IMG/VR virus record: IMGVR_UViG_3300029947_000025
Span: 1 to 31,981 of that record
Strand: one strand, 5' to 3'
DNA length: 31,981 nucleotides
From: a virus
Shown here: positions 13,237 through 31,623 of the stretch, piece after piece
Position numbering within the stretch: the stretch's first letter is position 1
Layout: each line of letters opens with the position of its first letter
Notes under the pieces: model-generated
Database searches by the model: none
What the model was told of the DNA's origin: nothing
The model's input: only the letters and a program-made list of their open reading frames with translations
Position numbers and translations under genes: made by a program

Positions 13237-14088
13237 ATGAGATACGGGATGCCCTATATGGGGAGTAAGAATAAGCTGGCCGAGCGTATAGTGGCGCTGT
13301 TGCCTAAGGCGGAGCATTTGTATGATGTATTCTGCGGCGGCTGCGCACTGGCGCATTGTGCGGCGTTAAGCGGCAAGTACGAGCATATCCACATCAACGA
13401 CATAAGCGATATGCCGAGGTTGTTTGTGGATGCCGTAAGCGGCAAGTACCACGATGAACGGCGGTGGATAAGCCGTGAGGATTTCTTTGCGCTGAAAGAC
13501 GGTGATCCGTATGTGCGTGCGTGTTGGAGCTTCGGCAATAACGGGCGGAGTTACCTATACTCGCGCGAGACAGAGCCGTACAAGCGAGCTGTGCATGTGA
13601 TGCTGACGGCTGACAGCGTGCGCGAGCGCCGTGTGGCGTATAAGGAGGTTGTGCGGCTGCTTGTACCGCTAATCGGGAGTAAGACGGCTGAGAGCTTAGG
13701 CAATATGCAAAGTCTGGAAAGTCTGGAAAGTCTGGAAAGGCTGCAAAGGCTGGAAAGTCTGCAAAGTCTAGAAAGGCTGTTTACAATGAGCAAGGGGGAT
13801 TATCGGGATTTGGAGATAGCGGAGGGGAGCGTAATTTACGCCGACCCGCCGTATGCGACTTCAACAAAGACGGGCGATGATTACGGGACGGCCTTTGACC
13901 ATGCGGCGTTTTATGACTGGTGCGAGGCGCAGACGCAGCCGCTATATATAAGCGAGTACACGATGCCCGAAGAGCGCTTTGTATGTGTGGCGGAGTGGAA
14001 TGTGGTAAGCTTCATAAGTCCCACGAATAATAGATGTAAGCGTGTCGAAAAGTTGTGGATGCCGAGGGGGCAGTTATTGCCAAGGTAG
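13237..14088 (+). CDS. Orphan N6-adenine DNA methyltransferase (Dam / D12-class-like)
   Basis: PYMGSKNKL N-terminus, motif I DVFCGGCAL, motif IV VIYADPPYATS. No adjacent restriction endonuclease gene. Confidence 0.8.
   Translation: MRYGMPYMGSKNKLAERIVALLPKAEHLYDVFCGGCALAHCAALSGKYEHIHINDISDMPRLFVDAVSGKYHDERRWISREDFFALKDGDPYVRACWSFGNNGRSYLYSRETEPYKRAVHVMLTADSVRERRVAYKEVVRLLVPLIGSKTAESLGNMQSLESLESLERLQRLESLQSLERLFTMSKGDYRDLEIAEGSVIYADPPYATSTKTGDDYGTAFDHAAFYDWCEAQTQPLYISEYTMPEERFVCVAEWNVVSFISPTNNRCKRVEKLWMPRGQLLPR
13711..13779 (+). repeat. 9-bp tandem repeat (~7.5 units) inside the methyltransferase
   Basis: agtctggaa x3, then aggctgcaa, aggctggaa, agtctgcaa, agtctagaa, aggctg. Encodes SLESLESLERLQRLESLQSLERL. 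Confidence 0.9.
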
Positions 14089-24931: not shown

Positions 24932-26149
24932 TCACCGCTTACCGTACAGCACCCAGTCGAGCACTCGCCGATTGGCATCATCCACTTTCGATAAATCGAA
25001 ATCGATATATATATCCGTCACCGTATTACCACCATGCCCCAGCGCGTGCGCAATCGTGTCACGCGGTATGTCCAGAGACGCCGCAATCGTAGCCCACGTG
25101 TGCCGCGCCCAGTAAGTTGTCAGACCCGGAAATGCTGCCGTCACCGTTTTCTTGCCACCAAGCCCGTGTCGCTCGCACTCCCCTATCGACTGCAGACCCC
25201 GGTTGCAACGCTTGAGGTAGTCGCGATAATCCCCGTAACGCTCCGACACATCCAGCAGATACTCCCGACCATGATATTTGTCGATAATGTCGGCCGCCTC
25301 CGGCTCCACCCTTATAGAGTACAGCCTATGCGTCTTCGCCCGATTATACTCCACACGCCCTTCCGTCGTTACACCGCGAAGTCCGCACATATCTACCATA
25401 TTGATACCGCACAGCATGAACGACAGCAGCCACATATCGCGATGACGCACCTGCCAGTCTTCCACCGGATACTCCATGAACTCTCGCAACCTTTCTGCCG
25501 ACAGTGACCGCTTTGGCGTTGCAACCGGGCGGATCTTGAAACGCCTAAACGGATACACCGACGTCACTTCCTCATCCAGCGCTCGATTGAACACCGCGCG
25601 AATATTCCGCAGATGGATATTCCGCGCATTCTTACTCTCAGACTGCGCCAGAAACGCCTCGAAGCGTGTCAGCCAATTATAGTCAATATCCTCAAACGAT
25701 AGCGCCTCACACCCCTGCGGATCATACGCGCGGATGCGTGCCGCCGTCTGCGCATACAGCCCCTGCGTCCCACGGCTCAGGCCATAAGCGTACGCCTCAA
25801 GCGCCGGCATAAACGTACCCTCAACACCACCGCGTCCCAGTGCTCGCTCAACCGCACGCACACACATCTCCATCGAGGCCGACGGCACCTTTGCCAAAGC
25901 GCGTACAGCGTCATCCACCGCCTCGAAATACTGATCGAGTAGCAGATTTGTCTGCCGAGCATAGCGCCAGCGCCTATCCACATGCGCCGTACGCGCATCC
26001 CATACATCCGGTGGGATAGACAAATCCAAAGGGATGAACACACGACGCCCTTCATGACTGAGGGCGATTTTCAGACACGCGTTGCCGTCGGCGCGAAGCC
26101 GTCGGCTGTCAAGATAAAAAGTGAAAGAAGCCATAATAAAAATTGCCAC
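24932..26149 (-). CDS. int: Tyrosine recombinase / phage integrase (Bacteroidota-type N-terminal arm-binding domain)
   Basis: C-terminal catalytic box ARHTWATIAA...IAHALGHGGNTVTDIYI. N-terminus SFTFYLDSRRLRADGNACLKIALSHEGRR is typical of Bacteroidetes integrases. Adjacent to a tRNA-fragment attP. The start could be the ATG at 26134. Confidence 0.85.
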   Translation of the reverse strand: MAIFIMASFTFYLDSRRLRADGNACLKIALSHEGRRVFIPLDLSIPPDVWDARTAHVDRRWRYARQTNLLLDQYFEAVDDAVRALAKVPSASMEMCVRAVERALGRGGVEGTFMPALEAYAYGLSRGTQGLYAQTAARIRAYDPQGCEALSFEDIDYNWLTRFEAFLAQSESKNARNIHLRNIRAVFNRALDEEVTSVYPFRRFKIRPVATPKRSLSAERLREFMEYPVEDWQVRHRDMWLLSFMLCGINMVDMCGLRGVTTEGRVEYNRAKTHRLYSIRVEPEAADIIDKYHGREYLLDVSERYGDYRDYLKRCNRGLQSIGECERHGLGGKKTVTAAFPGLTTYWARHTWATIAASLDIPRDTIAHALGHGGNTVTDIYIDFDLSKVDDANRRVLDWVLYGKR

Positions 26150-26474: not shown

Positions 26475-27329
26475 TCACAGATTTTCGGCAACGTCGTCGG
26501 CAACGTCGTCGGAGACGTGGTCGGTCGGTGTGCCGGGATCGGGGGCGACTTCGTGGGTGACTTCGGGAGCGACTTCGTGGGCGGTCGGGGTGCCGGGTCG
26601 GTGGCCGGGGGCGTGGTCGGCGATGTCGGCGCCGAAGGGATGGAAGGTGGCTACGACTTTGGCTATGCCTATCAAGTCCTGACGGGACAGCTCGATGTCG
26701 GCATAGTCGGGGTTGAGACTATGCAGGGTCAGCGTGCCGAGGTGGTCGTCATAGGGGATATGGTCGGCATAGGACGTGTCGGAGTGGTCGGCATCGGGGG
26801 AGGTGGGAAGGAGTAGTTGTTTGACGAGGGTGCCGTCGGCGGTGGCGAAGAGGTAGACGGAGCCGCTACGCAGTGGATCGCCGCGATATAGGCGTCGGCA
26901 GTAGAGTGTGTCGCCGCTATGGATGAGCGGGAGCATGCTGTCGCCGGTGGCTGTGGCTGTGAAGTCGTAGTCGGGGGCGATGTCGAGGAGGTCGCGCCAT
27001 GTGTCGGCTTCGGCTGGTATGGGGGCGATGTCCCAGGCGCCGGCGGCTACGTGTCCGCCATAATGCGGGCGCTGGGTGTGCGTGTCGGGTAAGACCATCG
27101 CGCCCTCGCCCGTCAATAGCCAGTCGGCGGAAATGCGCGGATAGGCTCGGGCAAACCGACGTGCGGTCTGTTCAATGCTGTACCCGCCTGACCCTTTCAG
27201 CATCTGCGATACGCCAGACTTTGATATGTGTAAGGCTTCGGCTATGTCCTGCTGCTTGTGTATTACTCCAATATCTTTCAGATAATCAATCGCTTGATGC
27301 AGTCTCGCTTGTGTATCATTATTTCCCAT
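26475..27329 (-). CDS. CI-type repressor: N-terminal HTH, S24 (LexA-like) peptidase domain and a repetitive acidic/Pro-rich C-terminal tail
   Basis: HTH QQDIAEALHISKSGVSQMLKG. S24 nucleophile context ATGDSMLPLIHSGDTLYC with downstream Lys (TLVKQLL). Divergent from the early operon. Confidence 0.8.
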   Translation of the reverse strand: MGNNDTQARLHQAIDYLKDIGVIHKQQDIAEALHISKSGVSQMLKGSGGYSIEQTARRFARAYPRISADWLLTGEGAMVLPDTHTQRPHYGGHVAAGAWDIAPIPAEADTWRDLLDIAPDYDFTATATGDSMLPLIHSGDTLYCRRLYRGDPLRSGSVYLFATADGTLVKQLLLPTSPDADHSDTSYADHIPYDDHLGTLTLHSLNPDYADIELSRQDLIGIAKVVATFHPFGADIADHAPGHRPGTPTAHEVAPEVTHEVAPDPGTPTDHVSDDVADDVAENL

Positions 27330-27373: not shown

Positions 27374-27405
27374 ATTGCCCTAAACAAAAGTTTAGGTTAA
27401 TTTTG
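27374..27405 (+). promoter_or_regulatory. Rightward early promoter (Bacteroidota-type)
   Basis: -33-like ATTG at 27374-27377, a 20-nt spacer, then -7 TAATTTTG at 27398-27405. Direct repeats AAAGTGCGC (27414-27422, 27426-27434) follow in the leader. Confidence 0.45.
27379..27396. promoter_or_regulatory. Operator O2 (palindrome CCTAAA-N6-TTTAGG)
   Basis: cctaaacaaaagtttagg. Second copy, 28 bp centre-to-centre from O1. It lies between the -33 and -7 boxes of the rightward promoter. Confidence 0.6.
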
Positions 27406-27490
27406 TGGTCGAAAAAGTGCGCTAGAAAGTGCGCCCAAAGGTACGGAAAAAAGTGGGCTTTTTCAAGCGAACAATTAAAGACAACGAAAA

Positions 27491-28310: not shown

Positions 28311-28549
28311 CGGAGGAGAGACGATACAGGCGCGGCTGCCTATACAGCGAGATGACGAATAAGGGCAGATGTTCGACCAAGTATGTCCGCGGAGCGAAGC
28401 CCGTCTACTGCTTCCGCTGGGTGGCCGAGATAGTGATCCACGGCAAGCGGCATCGGATGCGTAGTACGAACTACGACAACTGCCGGAGGTGGTTGGATGA
28501 TATGATAGAGAAGGCCGGGCCGATAGAGTATTGGTCGCGAAAAGCATAA
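28307..28549 (+). CDS. Small basic protein, weak AP2-like DNA-binding resemblance
   Basis: 80 aa. FRWVAEIVIHGKRHRMRSTNYDNCRRWL resembles the W-x-A-x-I...GK...LG core of AP2-type domains. The match is weak. Confidence 0.4.
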   Translation: MTEERRYRRGCLYSEMTNKGRCSTKYVRGAKPVYCFRWVAEIVIHGKRHRMRSTNYDNCRRWLDDMIEKAGPIEYWSRKA

Positions 28550-28600
28550 CCATAGGGTAATATATATAGGTTTTTTCATGCAGTTTATGGTAAATCTGCC

Positions 28601-29200
28601 TATACCCGGGGGAGTTCGGGAGGATGTGAGCCGGGGTAAGGGCGGACGATGAAATGTGCGTTTTTTCATATTTCAAGGTGAGTTATAGAGATTAGACATT
28701 TTCATTGATGACCGGCAAGCCCGTGCGGGTGCAGCCGTCAGCCCCGGGGAAGTTCCCACCGCGCTACGGATCTTAGTCCGCCATAACGTCGAACGGCGCG
28801 GTTGTTCGGGCAGTACGGACACGGGGCACGAAATAATGTGGTAGTCGGCTGAGGAATGTCGAGAGACATAGACGCTGCCGATGACCATGGTCGAAAAAAG
28901 TAACATGGATTTCTGTCCATTGGTAAATGCTAAGTGCATGGAGGCGAGGCGCGCTGCAGAGGCAGCCCCCGAGGTGCAGGCCGAGAGGCCGCGGCTTCGA
29001 AGCGTCAGAGGCGTCGGCATATACTGATTTGTCACACTGTTTTGCATTTTCTTCCCGAAAAGCAAGCCGCCGCCTCAATTACCCCCGAAAGGGTGTGCGA
29101 TAGGATAGCCGCACACTGAATGATATAGTCCGGCTGCAAGGCCGCGCTGTTAGAAATTTGGCAACGCTATGCGCGGTTCAACTCCGCGCCGGGGACAAAG
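28601..29200 (+). ncRNA. Candidate large structured non-coding RNA with a tRNA/tmRNA-like T-arm (family unassigned)
   Basis: There is a ~730-nt gap without a + strand ORF in an otherwise tightly packed genome. Many hand-paired helices are present. They include GNRA hairpins (GGCC-GAGA-GGCC 28979-90; CCC-GAAA-GGG 29084-93), the 7-bp helix 29093-99/29110-16, and GCGCGG-UUCAACU-CCGCGC at 29171-89. The strand is inferred from the T-loop orientation. Confidence 0.4.
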
Positions 29201-29280
29201 ATAATGTGGTATGTTGAATGTTGAATGCACACGGCAGGAGACGAACCGCGAAATACTAACAATCTAAATAATAATATTTT

Positions 29281-29793
29281 ATGGAAATGACAATCAATGT
29301 GAAGGTGGACGTGAGCGAGCGCGTGATAGCGCTGGTGGCGCGTCTGCTAAGTGGGCGAGAAAGCGGTCCCGAGGCTGTGGCCATACTGACCGAGACAGCG
29401 CCTAAAGCGGCTGCCGAGGCTGTGACGGCGTCAGCGCCTAAAGCGGCTGCAGCACCGACCAAGCCGTTGACGGCGACGCCGACGGCATCGGCGACAGTCA
29501 AGGCGGCAAAGGCGTCAGTGCCTACAGCCGAGGACGTGCGTCAGGCGATGGTTGAGACGCGCAAGCGTATCATAGGCGAAGGCTGGGATGACCCCGAGAG
29601 TGACGCATACAAGTTCTACCATCGGACGCTGGTGTCGATGTTCAAGACGACAGCAACGCTGCACGGGGCACCGAAGCCGAGCCAGTTGGCCGAGGACGAG
29701 CGTCAGGCGTTTATAGACGATTTGGCGCAGATCCGCAAGGATGACAAGGGCAAACTGACGTCTGACTATGCGGACGGGCCGCTGCCTTTTTAG
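29281..29793 (+). CDS. Hypothetical protein with an Ala/Pro/Thr-rich linker
   Basis: 170-aa ORF upstream of the nuclease. Low-complexity middle (APKAAAEAVTASAPKAAAAPTKPLTATPTASA). No motif recognised. Confidence 0.5.
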   Translation: MEMTINVKVDVSERVIALVARLLSGRESGPEAVAILTETAPKAAAEAVTASAPKAAAAPTKPLTATPTASATVKAAKASVPTAEDVRQAMVETRKRIIGEGWDDPESDAYKFYHRTLVSMFKTTATLHGAPKPSQLAEDERQAFIDDLAQIRKDDKGKLTSDYADGPLPF

Positions 29794-31062: not shown

Positions 31063-31623
31063 ATGAAAAATCTAAAACGAGTAGGCGGCAAGGTGGTCTT
31101 CGGCCCGGTACGCCTGAGTTATGTACACCTTTTTGAAAAATACGCTTTCGAGGGCGAGGATAAGGACAGCGCGAAGTACATGTGCAGCGTGCTGATCCCG
31201 ATGAAGGAAAAGGCCGCGCTGAAAGCCATAGACGAGGCTATCGAACATGTGACCGCGGAAGCCGTGGCGTCCAAATGGCGCGGCGTGCGACCCAAACGCT
31301 TAGCGACTCCGCTGCGCGATGGCAACGAAAAGGAGGGCGCCGGTGATGAGTACACCGATGTGATGTACTTCAACGCCAAGAGCAGCCGCCGAGTGGCCGT
31401 TGTAGACCGCGACTGCGAGCCGCTGACCGACCCCGAAAGCATGTACAGCGGCGTATGGGCGAATGTGTCCGTGACGTTTTTCGCCTACGACGTGAGCGGA
31501 AATAAGGGCATAGGCGTAGCGCTGAACTCCGTGCAGAAGGTGCGTGATGACGAACCTTTCGGGGGTAGCACAGACGGCAGCCGCGACTTCGACGACTTCG
31601 GGACGGACGATGATGACCTATAA
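31063..31623 (+). CDS. DUF2815-family protein (phage ssDNA-binding-like), acidic C-terminal tail
   Basis: VVFGPVRLSYVHLFEKYAF...KYMCSVLIP signature. C-terminus DFDDFGTDDDDL resembles SSB tails. Follows the DUF2800 nuclease, as in known phage modules. Confidence 0.7.
   Translation: MKNLKRVGGKVVFGPVRLSYVHLFEKYAFEGEDKDSAKYMCSVLIPMKEKAALKAIDEAIEHVTAEAVASKWRGVRPKRLATPLRDGNEKEGAGDEYTDVMYFNAKSSRRVAVVDRDCEPLTDPESMYSGVWANVSVTFFAYDVSGNKGIGVALNSVQKVRDDEPFGGSTDGSRDFDDFGTDDDDL

Follow-up and report, generated by a model that had tools for sequence, protein, structure and literature searches.

Which product, if any, is encoded by the tract at positions 28550-29280 in the early operon of the phage genome IMGVR_UViG_3300029947_000025? 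This 31,981-nt stretch, which was analysed as a whole and is referred to here as the window, has no convincing gene from the stop at 28549 up to the ATG at 29281. An earlier note made from the letters alone had proposed one large structured noncoding RNA with an end closure resembling that of transfer-messenger RNA (tmRNA). Our analysis leaves little doubt that the tract represents a real family of structured noncoding RNAs on the + strand. The early-operon RNA postulated in the note is thus conserved and structured, but it is not a single large RNA and consists of locally closed modules, namely a bulged hairpin (H0), a tRNA-like structure (TLS-A), a central domain and a second tRNA-like structure (TLS-B). 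The family is apparently undescribed, and it appears to comprise modular phage noncoding RNAs built on tRNA mimics without an anticodon.

Evidence for a folded noncoding RNA

While the absence of a gene was correctly recognized in the earlier note, its statement that no + strand open reading frame (ORF) exceeds about 25 codons did not hold, given that ORFs of 48 (28881-29027), 58 (28927-29103) and 61 codons (28934-29119) are present. However, none of the three is conserved in the homologues, and no frame is open in every copy. The variable columns are distributed over the three codon positions as 55/54/59, and gap runs are mostly not multiples of three. A protein-coding reading was rejected on the basis of stops in varying frames, the lack of a codon-position bias and indels that do not come in threes, so that the noncoding proposal stood the comparison of frames between homologues.

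Public gene calls of 99-159 aa overlie the RNA modules in four related contigs (L122 2564-2983; L119 1645-1959; L125 1557-1856; L131 2683-3162 on the - strand), including a "139-aa protein" in L122 and calls of 104 aa in L119 and 99 aa in L125. These calls have no Pfam match, and their frame is not kept between homologues. Due to the lack of a conserved frame, they are almost certainly spurious, which is of practical relevance for users of public gene callers.

The strongest evidence for an RNA comes from its helices. For the central domain together with TLS-B, a model (R1) of 28941-29196 with eleven helices, numbers 1-8 in the central domain and 9-11 in TLS-B, was derived by RNAalifold and a covariance model. 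In 20 distinct sequences, 97% of the cells are paired, and 16 of the 55 pairs have changed on both sides, a covariation that was reached by none of 500 column shuffles. Sliding the partner strands by 1-3 columns as a control lowered the pairing to 37-53%. A second covariance model (R2), covering the TLS-A part in 16 copies, yielded 96% paired cells and compensatory changes in 25 of 46 pairs, and all five covariation measures exceeded every one of 500 shuffles. The compensatory changes that the earlier note had expected in homologues were thus found. Within paired columns, 71 G·U but 13 A·C combinations were counted, which identifies the + strand as the folded RNA. Folding energies compared with shuffled sequences gave z = -3.1 for the + strand and z = -1.0 for the - strand. 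The tract had also been described as GC-rich, but its GC content (0.53-0.56) does not surpass that of the genome (approximately 0.57).

These data bear on the possibility that the tract is not functional as RNA, but is made up of decayed phage tRNA genes or attachment site (att) remnants, or represents a DNA element, for instance an origin of replication equipped with hairpins and iterons. In favour of such readings, tRNA genes are found in phages and tRNA 3' ends serve them as integration sites, the T-arm pattern also occurs at partial tRNA-like edges of unrelated viral contigs, and the tract, with short 7-nt repeats after both mimics, is located just before replication genes. However, decay would not maintain 96-97% of the pairs by compensatory changes, and the G·U to A·C ratio points to a transcribed + strand. 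Moreover, conserved non-tRNA segments occupy the place of the anticodon arm, and the integrase with the likely att region is 2.5 kb away. We consider this explanation very improbable.

The RNA has no counterpart in the collections searched. A cmscan of the whole window with all 4227 families of Rfam 15 returned nothing at gathering score, and for the tract a threshold of E <= 10 delivered solely chance-level matches to unrelated families, with no match to tRNA. The tract is therefore not a member of the GOLLD, ROOL, tmRNA, RNase P or intron families considered in the earlier note, none of which was matched even at this threshold. Permissive Rfam scans of the related contigs L071 and L118/L114 revealed nothing meaningful. 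ARAGORN detected no tRNA or tmRNA in the tract with default settings, and only poor, artefactual folds with relaxed settings (70-80% thresholds, introns and tmRNA enabled). A blastn search of the tract against GenBank phages gave no match, and the element was not described in the literature searched. A large survey of candidate RNAs of phages (PMC10690425), for which an inclusion of the present element could not be checked, treats tRNA-like candidates in general terms.

Architecture of the cassette

The positions of all modules and of the surrounding features are compiled in Table 1.

Table 1. Features of the RNA cassette, its genomic surroundings and related loci in other contigs
Feature	Position	Strand	Remarks
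Cassette modules	28710-29196	+	H0, TLS-A, central domain, TLS-B
Leader	28550-28709	+	includes phage-specific insertion 28576-28712
H0	28710-28739	+	conserved bulged hairpin directly 5' of TLS-A; outer helix 28710-16/28734-39, inner helix 28719-22/28727-30
TLS-A	28741-28828	+	four-way cloverleaf tRNA-like structure
TLS-A acceptor-like stem	28741-46/28822-27	+	6 bp
TLS-A small hairpin	28747-57	+	
TLS-A long arm	28758-64/28796-802	+	encloses inner hairpin 28767-80 (28767-70/28777-80)
TLS-A single strand	28782-95	+	(C/U)AUAACGUNGAACG, nearly invariant, inside long arm
TLS-A T-like arm	28803-21	+	6-bp stem, 7-nt loop
Tail A	28829-28875	+	AAUAAUGUGGUAGUCGG...; ~7-nt AAUGUNG periodicity; hairpin AUGUC-GAGA-GACAU 28856-69
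Variable spacer	28876-28940	+	tail A to central domain; ~30 nt in L058/L005 group
Central domain	28941-29076	+	~135 nt; closed by terminal helix H1 28941-45/29072-76
H2	28948-52/29002-06	+	three-way junction
H3	28953-57/28962-66	+	three-way junction; AGAG loop
H4	28970-74/28995-99	+	three-way junction; capped by H5
H5	28979-90	+	GGCC-GAGA-GGCC
H6	29010-15/29066-71	+	long hairpin with variable tip
TLS-B	29083-29196	+	anticodon-less tRNA-like structure
TLS-B acceptor-like stem	29083-87/29190-94	+	
TLS-B D-like hairpin	29093-99/29110-16	+	7 bp; loop with invariant GGA
TLS-B variable insert	29117-29160	+	optional hairpin 29131-34/29141-44; 0-55 nt in homologues
TLS-B T arm	29171-76/29184-89	+	loop UUCAACU; conserved AACGCUA before; A29195, C29196 after acceptor
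Tail B	29197-29280	+	AAAGAUAAUGUGGUAUGUUGAAUGUUGAAUG, repeat of tail A, then A/U-rich leader of 170-aa gene (start 29281)
Integrase, Bacteroidota-type	24932-26149	-	
S24 repressor	26475-27329	-	
Putative promoter motif	27398-27405	+	TAATTTTG, Bacteroidota-type -7 (TAnnTTTG), between divergent S24 repressor and first early gene
Rightward early operon	from 27491	+	helix-turn-helix (HTH) genes, tract, 170-aa protein, DUF2800 PD-(D/E)XK nuclease, Gp2.5-like single-stranded DNA-binding protein (SSB)
440-nt RNA candidate, L071	10722-11163		
440-nt RNA candidate, L088	9485-9900	-	
440-nt RNA candidate, L132	1801-2240		
440-nt RNA candidate, L131	2658-3040		
N6-adenine methyltransferase genes in relatives	L116 1246-2187; L118 520-1473; L119 254-1195; L124 1222-2163; L125 151-1092		

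The T arm of TLS-B is of genuine tRNA type and is followed by an acceptor-like 3' strand, as the earlier note had seen. The motif CGCGG-UUCRANY-CCGCG, with the T loop closed by a G-C pair, is found in 20/20 copies. Helices 9-11 are 99-100% paired; the acceptor shows a C-G to U-A change in 9 of the 20 sequences, and the D-like hairpin has three compensatory pairs. The loop of this hairpin comprises 10-12 nt, and its GGA, reminiscent of a D loop, could form the tRNA elbow. Acceptor and T stem of the homologues add up to a stack of 12 bp (6+6 or 7+5), the dimension of tRNA, which is maintained because copies lacking two bases 5' of the T stem, and thus having a 5-bp T stem, gain a seventh acceptor pair. 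The hairpin CCC-GAAA-GGG (29084-93) drawn in the earlier note is not conserved; CCCCG 29083-87 pairs with 29190-94 instead and forms the acceptor-like 5' strand. The D-like hairpin and the hairpin of the variable insert had been proposed correctly, the former being kept in homologues. Where present, the insert forms a tetraloop hairpin, never an anticodon-type loop, and it is completely missing from five homologues. Together with the lack of an anticodon arm, this weakens the former idea of a decoy against anticodon nucleases. A loop-linker pseudoknot (AUAGC with GCUAU) was rejected, as it is possible in one sequence type only and absent in L006, L008, L005 and L004.

Both helices of H0 and, in TLS-A, the acceptor-like stem, the long arm and the inner hairpin had been paired by hand before, and they are kept in homologues. 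In TLS-A, the anticodon position is taken by an 8-9-bp arm that encloses a hairpin and a conserved 13-nt strand and is not an anticodon arm. The divergent homologues possess a canonical T loop, UUCGAGU in L118 and UUCGACU in L058, L005 and L004. The acceptor is followed by A28828 and then CGAA, and both mimics are succeeded by R-C-R-A-A. Given that R2 also scores the TLS-B region, albeit weakly (20-43 bits), and that R-C-R-A-A and the tails are alike, TLS-A and TLS-B are probably old duplicates. The helices of H0 are 97-100% paired, with compensatory changes in four pairs, and its inner helix is capped by a GNRA-type loop in relatives.

In the central domain, the segment GCGCUGCRGAGGCAGCCCCC is nearly invariant, and compensatory changes among the 20 distinct sequences were detected in H1, H2, H3, H4, H6, H7 and H8. 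H1 joins the ends of the domain, and TLS-B starts 6 nt later. The GNRA hairpin H5 had already been noticed and is real and kept in homologues. In contrast, CUGCA 28954-58 does not pair with UGCAG 28975-79 as proposed; the conserved pairing is GCUGC 28953-57 with GCAGC 28962-66, in which G-C is replaced by A-U in L039 and L051. The helix order H2-H3-CCCC-H4-CGAA-H2' resembles the order P2-P3-P1'-P4-J4/2-P2' of self-cleaving ribozymes of the hepatitis delta virus (HDV) type. A corresponding nested double pseudoknot, with GGGG 28941-44 pairing with CCCC 28967-70, was rejected, because covariation favours H1. The HDV-like pairing is broken by A28942 in the window, by A in L039 and by U in L006, whereas the changes in the window and L039 are kept or compensated in H1 with 29072-76. 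In addition, the tract has no HDV-type match in Rfam.

The regions around the modules are less uniform. The insertion in the leader (28576-28712, approximately 137 nt) is peculiar to this phage, relatives having about 36 nt at this place. It includes partial duplications, namely GTTTTTTCAT twice at a distance of 90 nt and CCCGGGGGAGTTC, a copy similar to the beginning of TLS-A. In contig L114, this site is occupied by another insertion, which is G/C-rich and has a similar CCCGGGG...GCCGGGG hairpin; the insertion of the window may be a further optional module. Tail A is present in the window-type phage group only. The 11-nt direct repeat reported previously exists and is part of a longer 22-nt repeat (77% identity) located 3' of both tRNA-like structures. 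Runs of a 7-nt unit at 28829-28860 and 29197-29226 (AAUGUGG, UAUGUUG, AAUGUUG and AAUGCAC; AAUGUCG in relatives) are absent from the L039/L051/L005/L071 group and might constitute a protein-binding array or a processing signal. Two further motifs were observed near tail B. The sequence GGAGACGAACCGCG (29237-29250), found in this phage only, is 86% complementary to 29172-29185, the 5' half of the TLS-B T arm, and a TAnnTTTG motif (TATCTTTG) at 29196-29203 on the - strand, at the 3' edge of TLS-B, is not kept in relatives. A repeat search did not reveal conserved complementarity of the loops to flanking RNA that would indicate an antisense target.

Modularity and distribution

The order H0, TLS-A, central domain and TLS-B occurs in two phage groups with different flanking genes. 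In the second group (L058/L051, L005 and L004), the cassette is located after the first early genes beside the repressor. In contig L039, central domain and TLS-B are present and TLS-A is absent. In L071, L088, L132 and the truncated L131, TLS-B stands behind an unrelated RNA of about 440 nt and the central domain is absent. What precedes TLS-B is in every case a long, conserved RNA free of ORFs, namely the central domain or the 440-nt domain.

The 440-nt RNA candidate is ORF-free, 76-88% conserved and rich in predicted helices, with eight compensatory pairs among four sequences, and it ends in TLS-B. It is located in the early operon of other Bacteroidales phages just after HTH genes and has no Rfam match. 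Folding of L071 resulted in a z of approximately -3 on both strands and gives no strand choice. A hammerhead-like CUGAUGAG...GAAA in the L071 domain was discarded due to the lack of Rfam support and of a closing stem II. The HTH gene preceding this RNA in L071 was also observed alone, without the RNA, in the large bacterial contigs L127-L130 (for instance L128 2501-2701). There, it adjoins an AbiEi-like gene and host glycoside-hydrolase genes, and the locus is probably a prophage remnant.

This modularity is decisive for the proposal of a single large RNA of the ornate GOLLD/ROOL or the tmRNA type, closed by 28741-47 and 29190-96. In its support, 28710-29196 is conserved as a unit in window-type phages, and the order TLS-A, central domain and TLS-B recurs in the second phage group. 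However, each mimic has a local partner strand in every copy, and TLS-B occurs without the 28741 region in L039, L071 and L088; the modules are likewise separate in L132. In L005 and L004, the long-range closure fails because the two acceptors differ (GCCCG/CGGGC in TLS-A and CCCUCGG/CCGAGGG in TLS-B), so that they can pair locally only. Furthermore, the third acceptor pair is C-G and not G·U, no reading frame is conserved, and both Rfam at E <= 10 and the tmRNA search by ARAGORN were negative. Hence, the long-range closure is refuted, and a single large RNA is highly unlikely.

A search of 5.8 billion protein clusters yielded only 27 relatives of the 170-aa protein encoded downstream of the tract. 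A gap of 590-680 nt holding the element was present in all fetched contigs with this gene that reach far enough upstream (L114-L120 and L122-L125); L121, which starts approximately 205 nt 5' of the gene, is uninformative. Further copies were added by pattern scans of IMG/VR and of genome and metagenome collections, resulting in a total of 20 distinct copies of window 28938-29204. The segment 28713-29280 is approximately 72% identical in relatives. The family comprises about 25 phage or metagenome contigs from roughly five clades, and the cassette lies on the early-gene strand in all cases. Its distribution is narrow, with a few dozen contigs, and restricted to temperate phages of Bacteroidales (Muribaculaceae-type). 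The host is placed by the closest cultured relative, a Bacteroides phage described below, and by a neighbouring protein in a related element that bears the NCBI label "Prevotella sp. CAG:873", which belongs to a Muribaculaceae lineage. Matches of a 21-mer core in L007, L049, L050, L054, L060-62 and L064 were dismissed as chance sites, being non-homologous by alignment and covariance model. A 16-mer pattern scan produced nearly all noise, and most matches of the T-arm pattern fell in GC-rich contigs without relationship to the phage, in part at the ends of these contigs.

Among cultured phages, Bacteroides phage Bacuni_F1 (L126) is the closest relative, with a terminase identity of 62%. This phage is syntenic, with a homologue of the 170-aa protein and DUF2800, but lacks the tract, which characterizes the cassette as accessory. 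The homologue in Bacuni_F1 is encoded at 28552-29055 on the - strand, is annotated as "putative DUF3086 domain" and shares 40% identity over the C-terminal 73 residues. It occupies the same place before DUF2800, with an upstream spacer of approximately 50 nt and no RNA cassette.

Genomic context

The window, about 32 kb long, belongs to a temperate tailed phage with genes for terminase, portal, protease, capsid, tail tube and an M15 endolysin. The genome looks complete and circularly permuted because the window ends lie inside the early replication module (SSB at 31063-31623, VapE-type primase-helicase at 101-2479). Beyond the window ends, the early operon continues with this primase-helicase, a VRR-NUC nuclease and an SNF2 helicase. 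The motif at 27398 is the sole TAnnTTTG on the + strand near the early operon and likely marks the start of the transcript bearing the cassette, its promoter function being predicted from the motif. No internal Bacteroidota promoter motif was found on the + strand of the tract, and no terminator-like site was found on this strand in or after the tract.

Two TAnnTTTG motifs (27398-27405 on the + strand and 27436-27443 on the - strand) face each other within the 160 nt that separate the repressor from the first early gene, an arrangement that looks like a divergent immunity switch region. Most relatives carry a gene for an N6-adenine methyltransferase of 313-317 aa two genes 5' of the cassette. 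It is absent from this position in the window, in which a D12-class methyltransferase is encoded at 13237-14088.

The position of the tract 5' of the genes for the 170-aa protein, the DUF2800 nuclease and SSB would suit a cis-acting leader that controls these replication/recombination genes by put-like antitermination, as a riboswitch or via translation or mRNA stability. The highly conserved junction in the central domain is compatible with such a function, and 29237-50 could pair with the T arm in this one phage. However, the genes 3' of the cassette differ between carriers, encoding the 170-aa protein, a 76-aa HTH protein, a 113-aa repeat protein or a 72-aa membrane protein. Neither a terminator-like site nor a conserved alternative pairing was detected, and Bacuni_F1 manages the same gene order without the tract. 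A role as cis-acting leader is thus quite improbable; antitermination, a reading offered in the earlier note, is neither favoured nor contradicted by these data.

Possible function of the cassette

We tentatively favour an explanation in which the mimics act as tRNA-style punctuation, at which RNase P and the enzymes that process tRNA 3' ends would cut stable RNAs out of the polycistronic early transcript. It is known that these enzymes recognise the acceptor/T-arm/elbow half of tRNA, and the phage C4 and CI RNAs and mascRNA discussed below offer precedents for RNase P processing of this kind. Punctuation is suggested because the cassette resides in a polycistronic operon without a promoter motif or terminator of its own and has retained exactly this half, with nothing decoding, and because TLS-B always trails a long structured RNA, with H1 tying the ends of the central domain together just before TLS-B. 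Both tRNA-like structures would keep the stacked acceptor and T helix of 12 bp that is measured by tRNA-processing enzymes. Host RNase P would cut on the 5' side of each mimic (28740/41 and 29082/83), and a 3' tRNA-processing nuclease would cut past the discriminator-like purine, after 28828 and 29195. R-C follows both acceptor-like stems, and a completion to CCA might take place after the 3' cuts, A-C being already encoded. Predicted products are TLS-A, TLS-B and a central-domain RNA of approximately 250 nt (approximately 170 nt in the L058 group), and the cuts would detach the downstream replication/recombination message.

Several observations weigh against punctuation. The T loop of TLS-A is degenerate in the window (GGCAGUA), and the acceptor and T stack of the window TLS-B amounts to 11 bp. 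RNase P prefers G+1/U-1, but the first acceptor pair is C-G with a C at position -1, and recognition of the mimics by this enzyme is predicted from shape only. The family is small and closely related, so that few independent covariation events are available. In addition, punctuation alone leaves unexplained why the sequences of the central domain and of CUAUAACGUAGAACG in TLS-A are so strongly conserved; the conserved central junction and TLS-A single strand suggest specific partners.

In the main alternative, which we regard as possible but rather unlikely, the tRNA mimics themselves are effectors that are made early in infection and titrate a host factor recognising the acceptor/T-arm half, the central domain being accessory or a second effector. 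Candidate targets are an immune toxin modifying or cutting tRNA 3' ends, a tRNA-processing or tRNA-modification enzyme, or EF-Tu. It fits this alternative that the cassette is accessory and missing from syntenic Bacuni_F1, that the early operon is the usual place of counter-defence genes and that the acceptor/T/elbow half of tRNA alone is retained, in two copies per cassette. Moreover, tRNA-targeting defences are common, as exemplified by Septu, which is reported to cut tRNA-Tyr (PMC13096335). However, TLS-B never stands alone right after a gene but trails a long structured RNA, for which a processing signal is the better fit, a partner protein could not be recognized, and the TLS-A T loop of window-type phages has decayed while the stems were kept. 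A decoy would also need to be excised, and effector mimics are therefore compatible with the processing model.

Since the cassette is accessory and early-expressed, host takeover or counter-defence is a likelier task than a core phage function. A distinctly unlikely, more far-reaching version combines both ideas in a mobile "tRNA-punctuated" cassette, whose CCA-tailed mimics would be decoys for immune effectors or enzymes acting on the tRNA acceptor end, and whose new 135-nt RNA (elsewhere the 440-nt RNA) would be a protein sponge or ribozyme. If true, it would provide MALAT1-mascRNA with a first counterpart in phages or bacteria and constitute the first RNA-based counter-defence by tRNA mimics.

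The comparative data provide good support for three new RNA folds (TLS-A, central domain and TLS-B), and a fourth RNA of about 440 nt shares TLS-B. The cassette suggests that phages express noncoding RNAs within protein operons via the tRNA-maturation machinery of the host. An interference of the mimics or the excised domain with host defences or tRNA metabolism, if it occurs, would add an RNA-based layer to the phage-host conflict in a major gut lineage. Processing or recognition signals resembling tRNA are already known in RNA viruses of plants, in long noncoding RNAs of eukaryotes and in two immunity RNAs of enterobacterial phages; for gut Bacteroidales phages, neither a catalogued RNA family nor a description in the literature searched was found.

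Comparison with known systems

GOLLD and ROOL are likewise large, ornate and prophage-borne, are often located beside tRNA genes and have no known function, but these RNAs form one fold of 500-800 nt, whereas the cassette is composed of separable modules of 30-135 nt and has no Rfam match at E <= 10. Measured against tRNA itself, TLS-B has the T arm but no anticodon arm, and it is not recognized by tRNA detectors. The mimics share with tmRNA and YrlA an acceptor stem, a T arm whose loop is canonical, a putative D-loop analogue and the lack of a decoding anticodon arm. In contrast to the cassette, tmRNA is closed by the ends of the whole RNA and has G3·U70 and a tag reading frame, and YrlA has a Ro-binding helix and adjoins rsr; the cassette has no Rfam match, and no Ro/TROVE or RtcB gene is present among the window proteins.

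In MALAT1 and MEN-beta with mascRNA and menRNA, a structured noncoding RNA is also directly followed by a tRNA-like structure that has no working anticodon. According to PMC8457004, RNase P cleavage at the tRNA-like mascRNA forms the 3' end of MALAT1 and frees a small tRNA-like RNA. The eukaryotic systems are nuclear and protect the end by a triple helix, whereas the upstream RNA of the cassette ends in plain H1, its cleavage is a prediction, and a second mimic is located upstream.

Phage immunity RNAs offer the other comparison. From operon transcripts of phages P1/P7 and of satellite phage P4, RNase P liberates the C4 and CI RNAs, respectively. Like the cassette, these are small structured RNAs in a phage early or immunity operon that are not separately terminated, and they are excised by RNase P via a precursor part resembling the acceptor/T half of tRNA. 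C4 and CI, however, comprise approximately 77-80 nt and are antisense to sites on the same transcript, whereas the cassette has no conserved complementarity and no Rfam C4 match; it carries two full tRNA-like modules and a 135-nt domain, and it belongs to phages of Bacteroidales instead of enterobacterial hosts.

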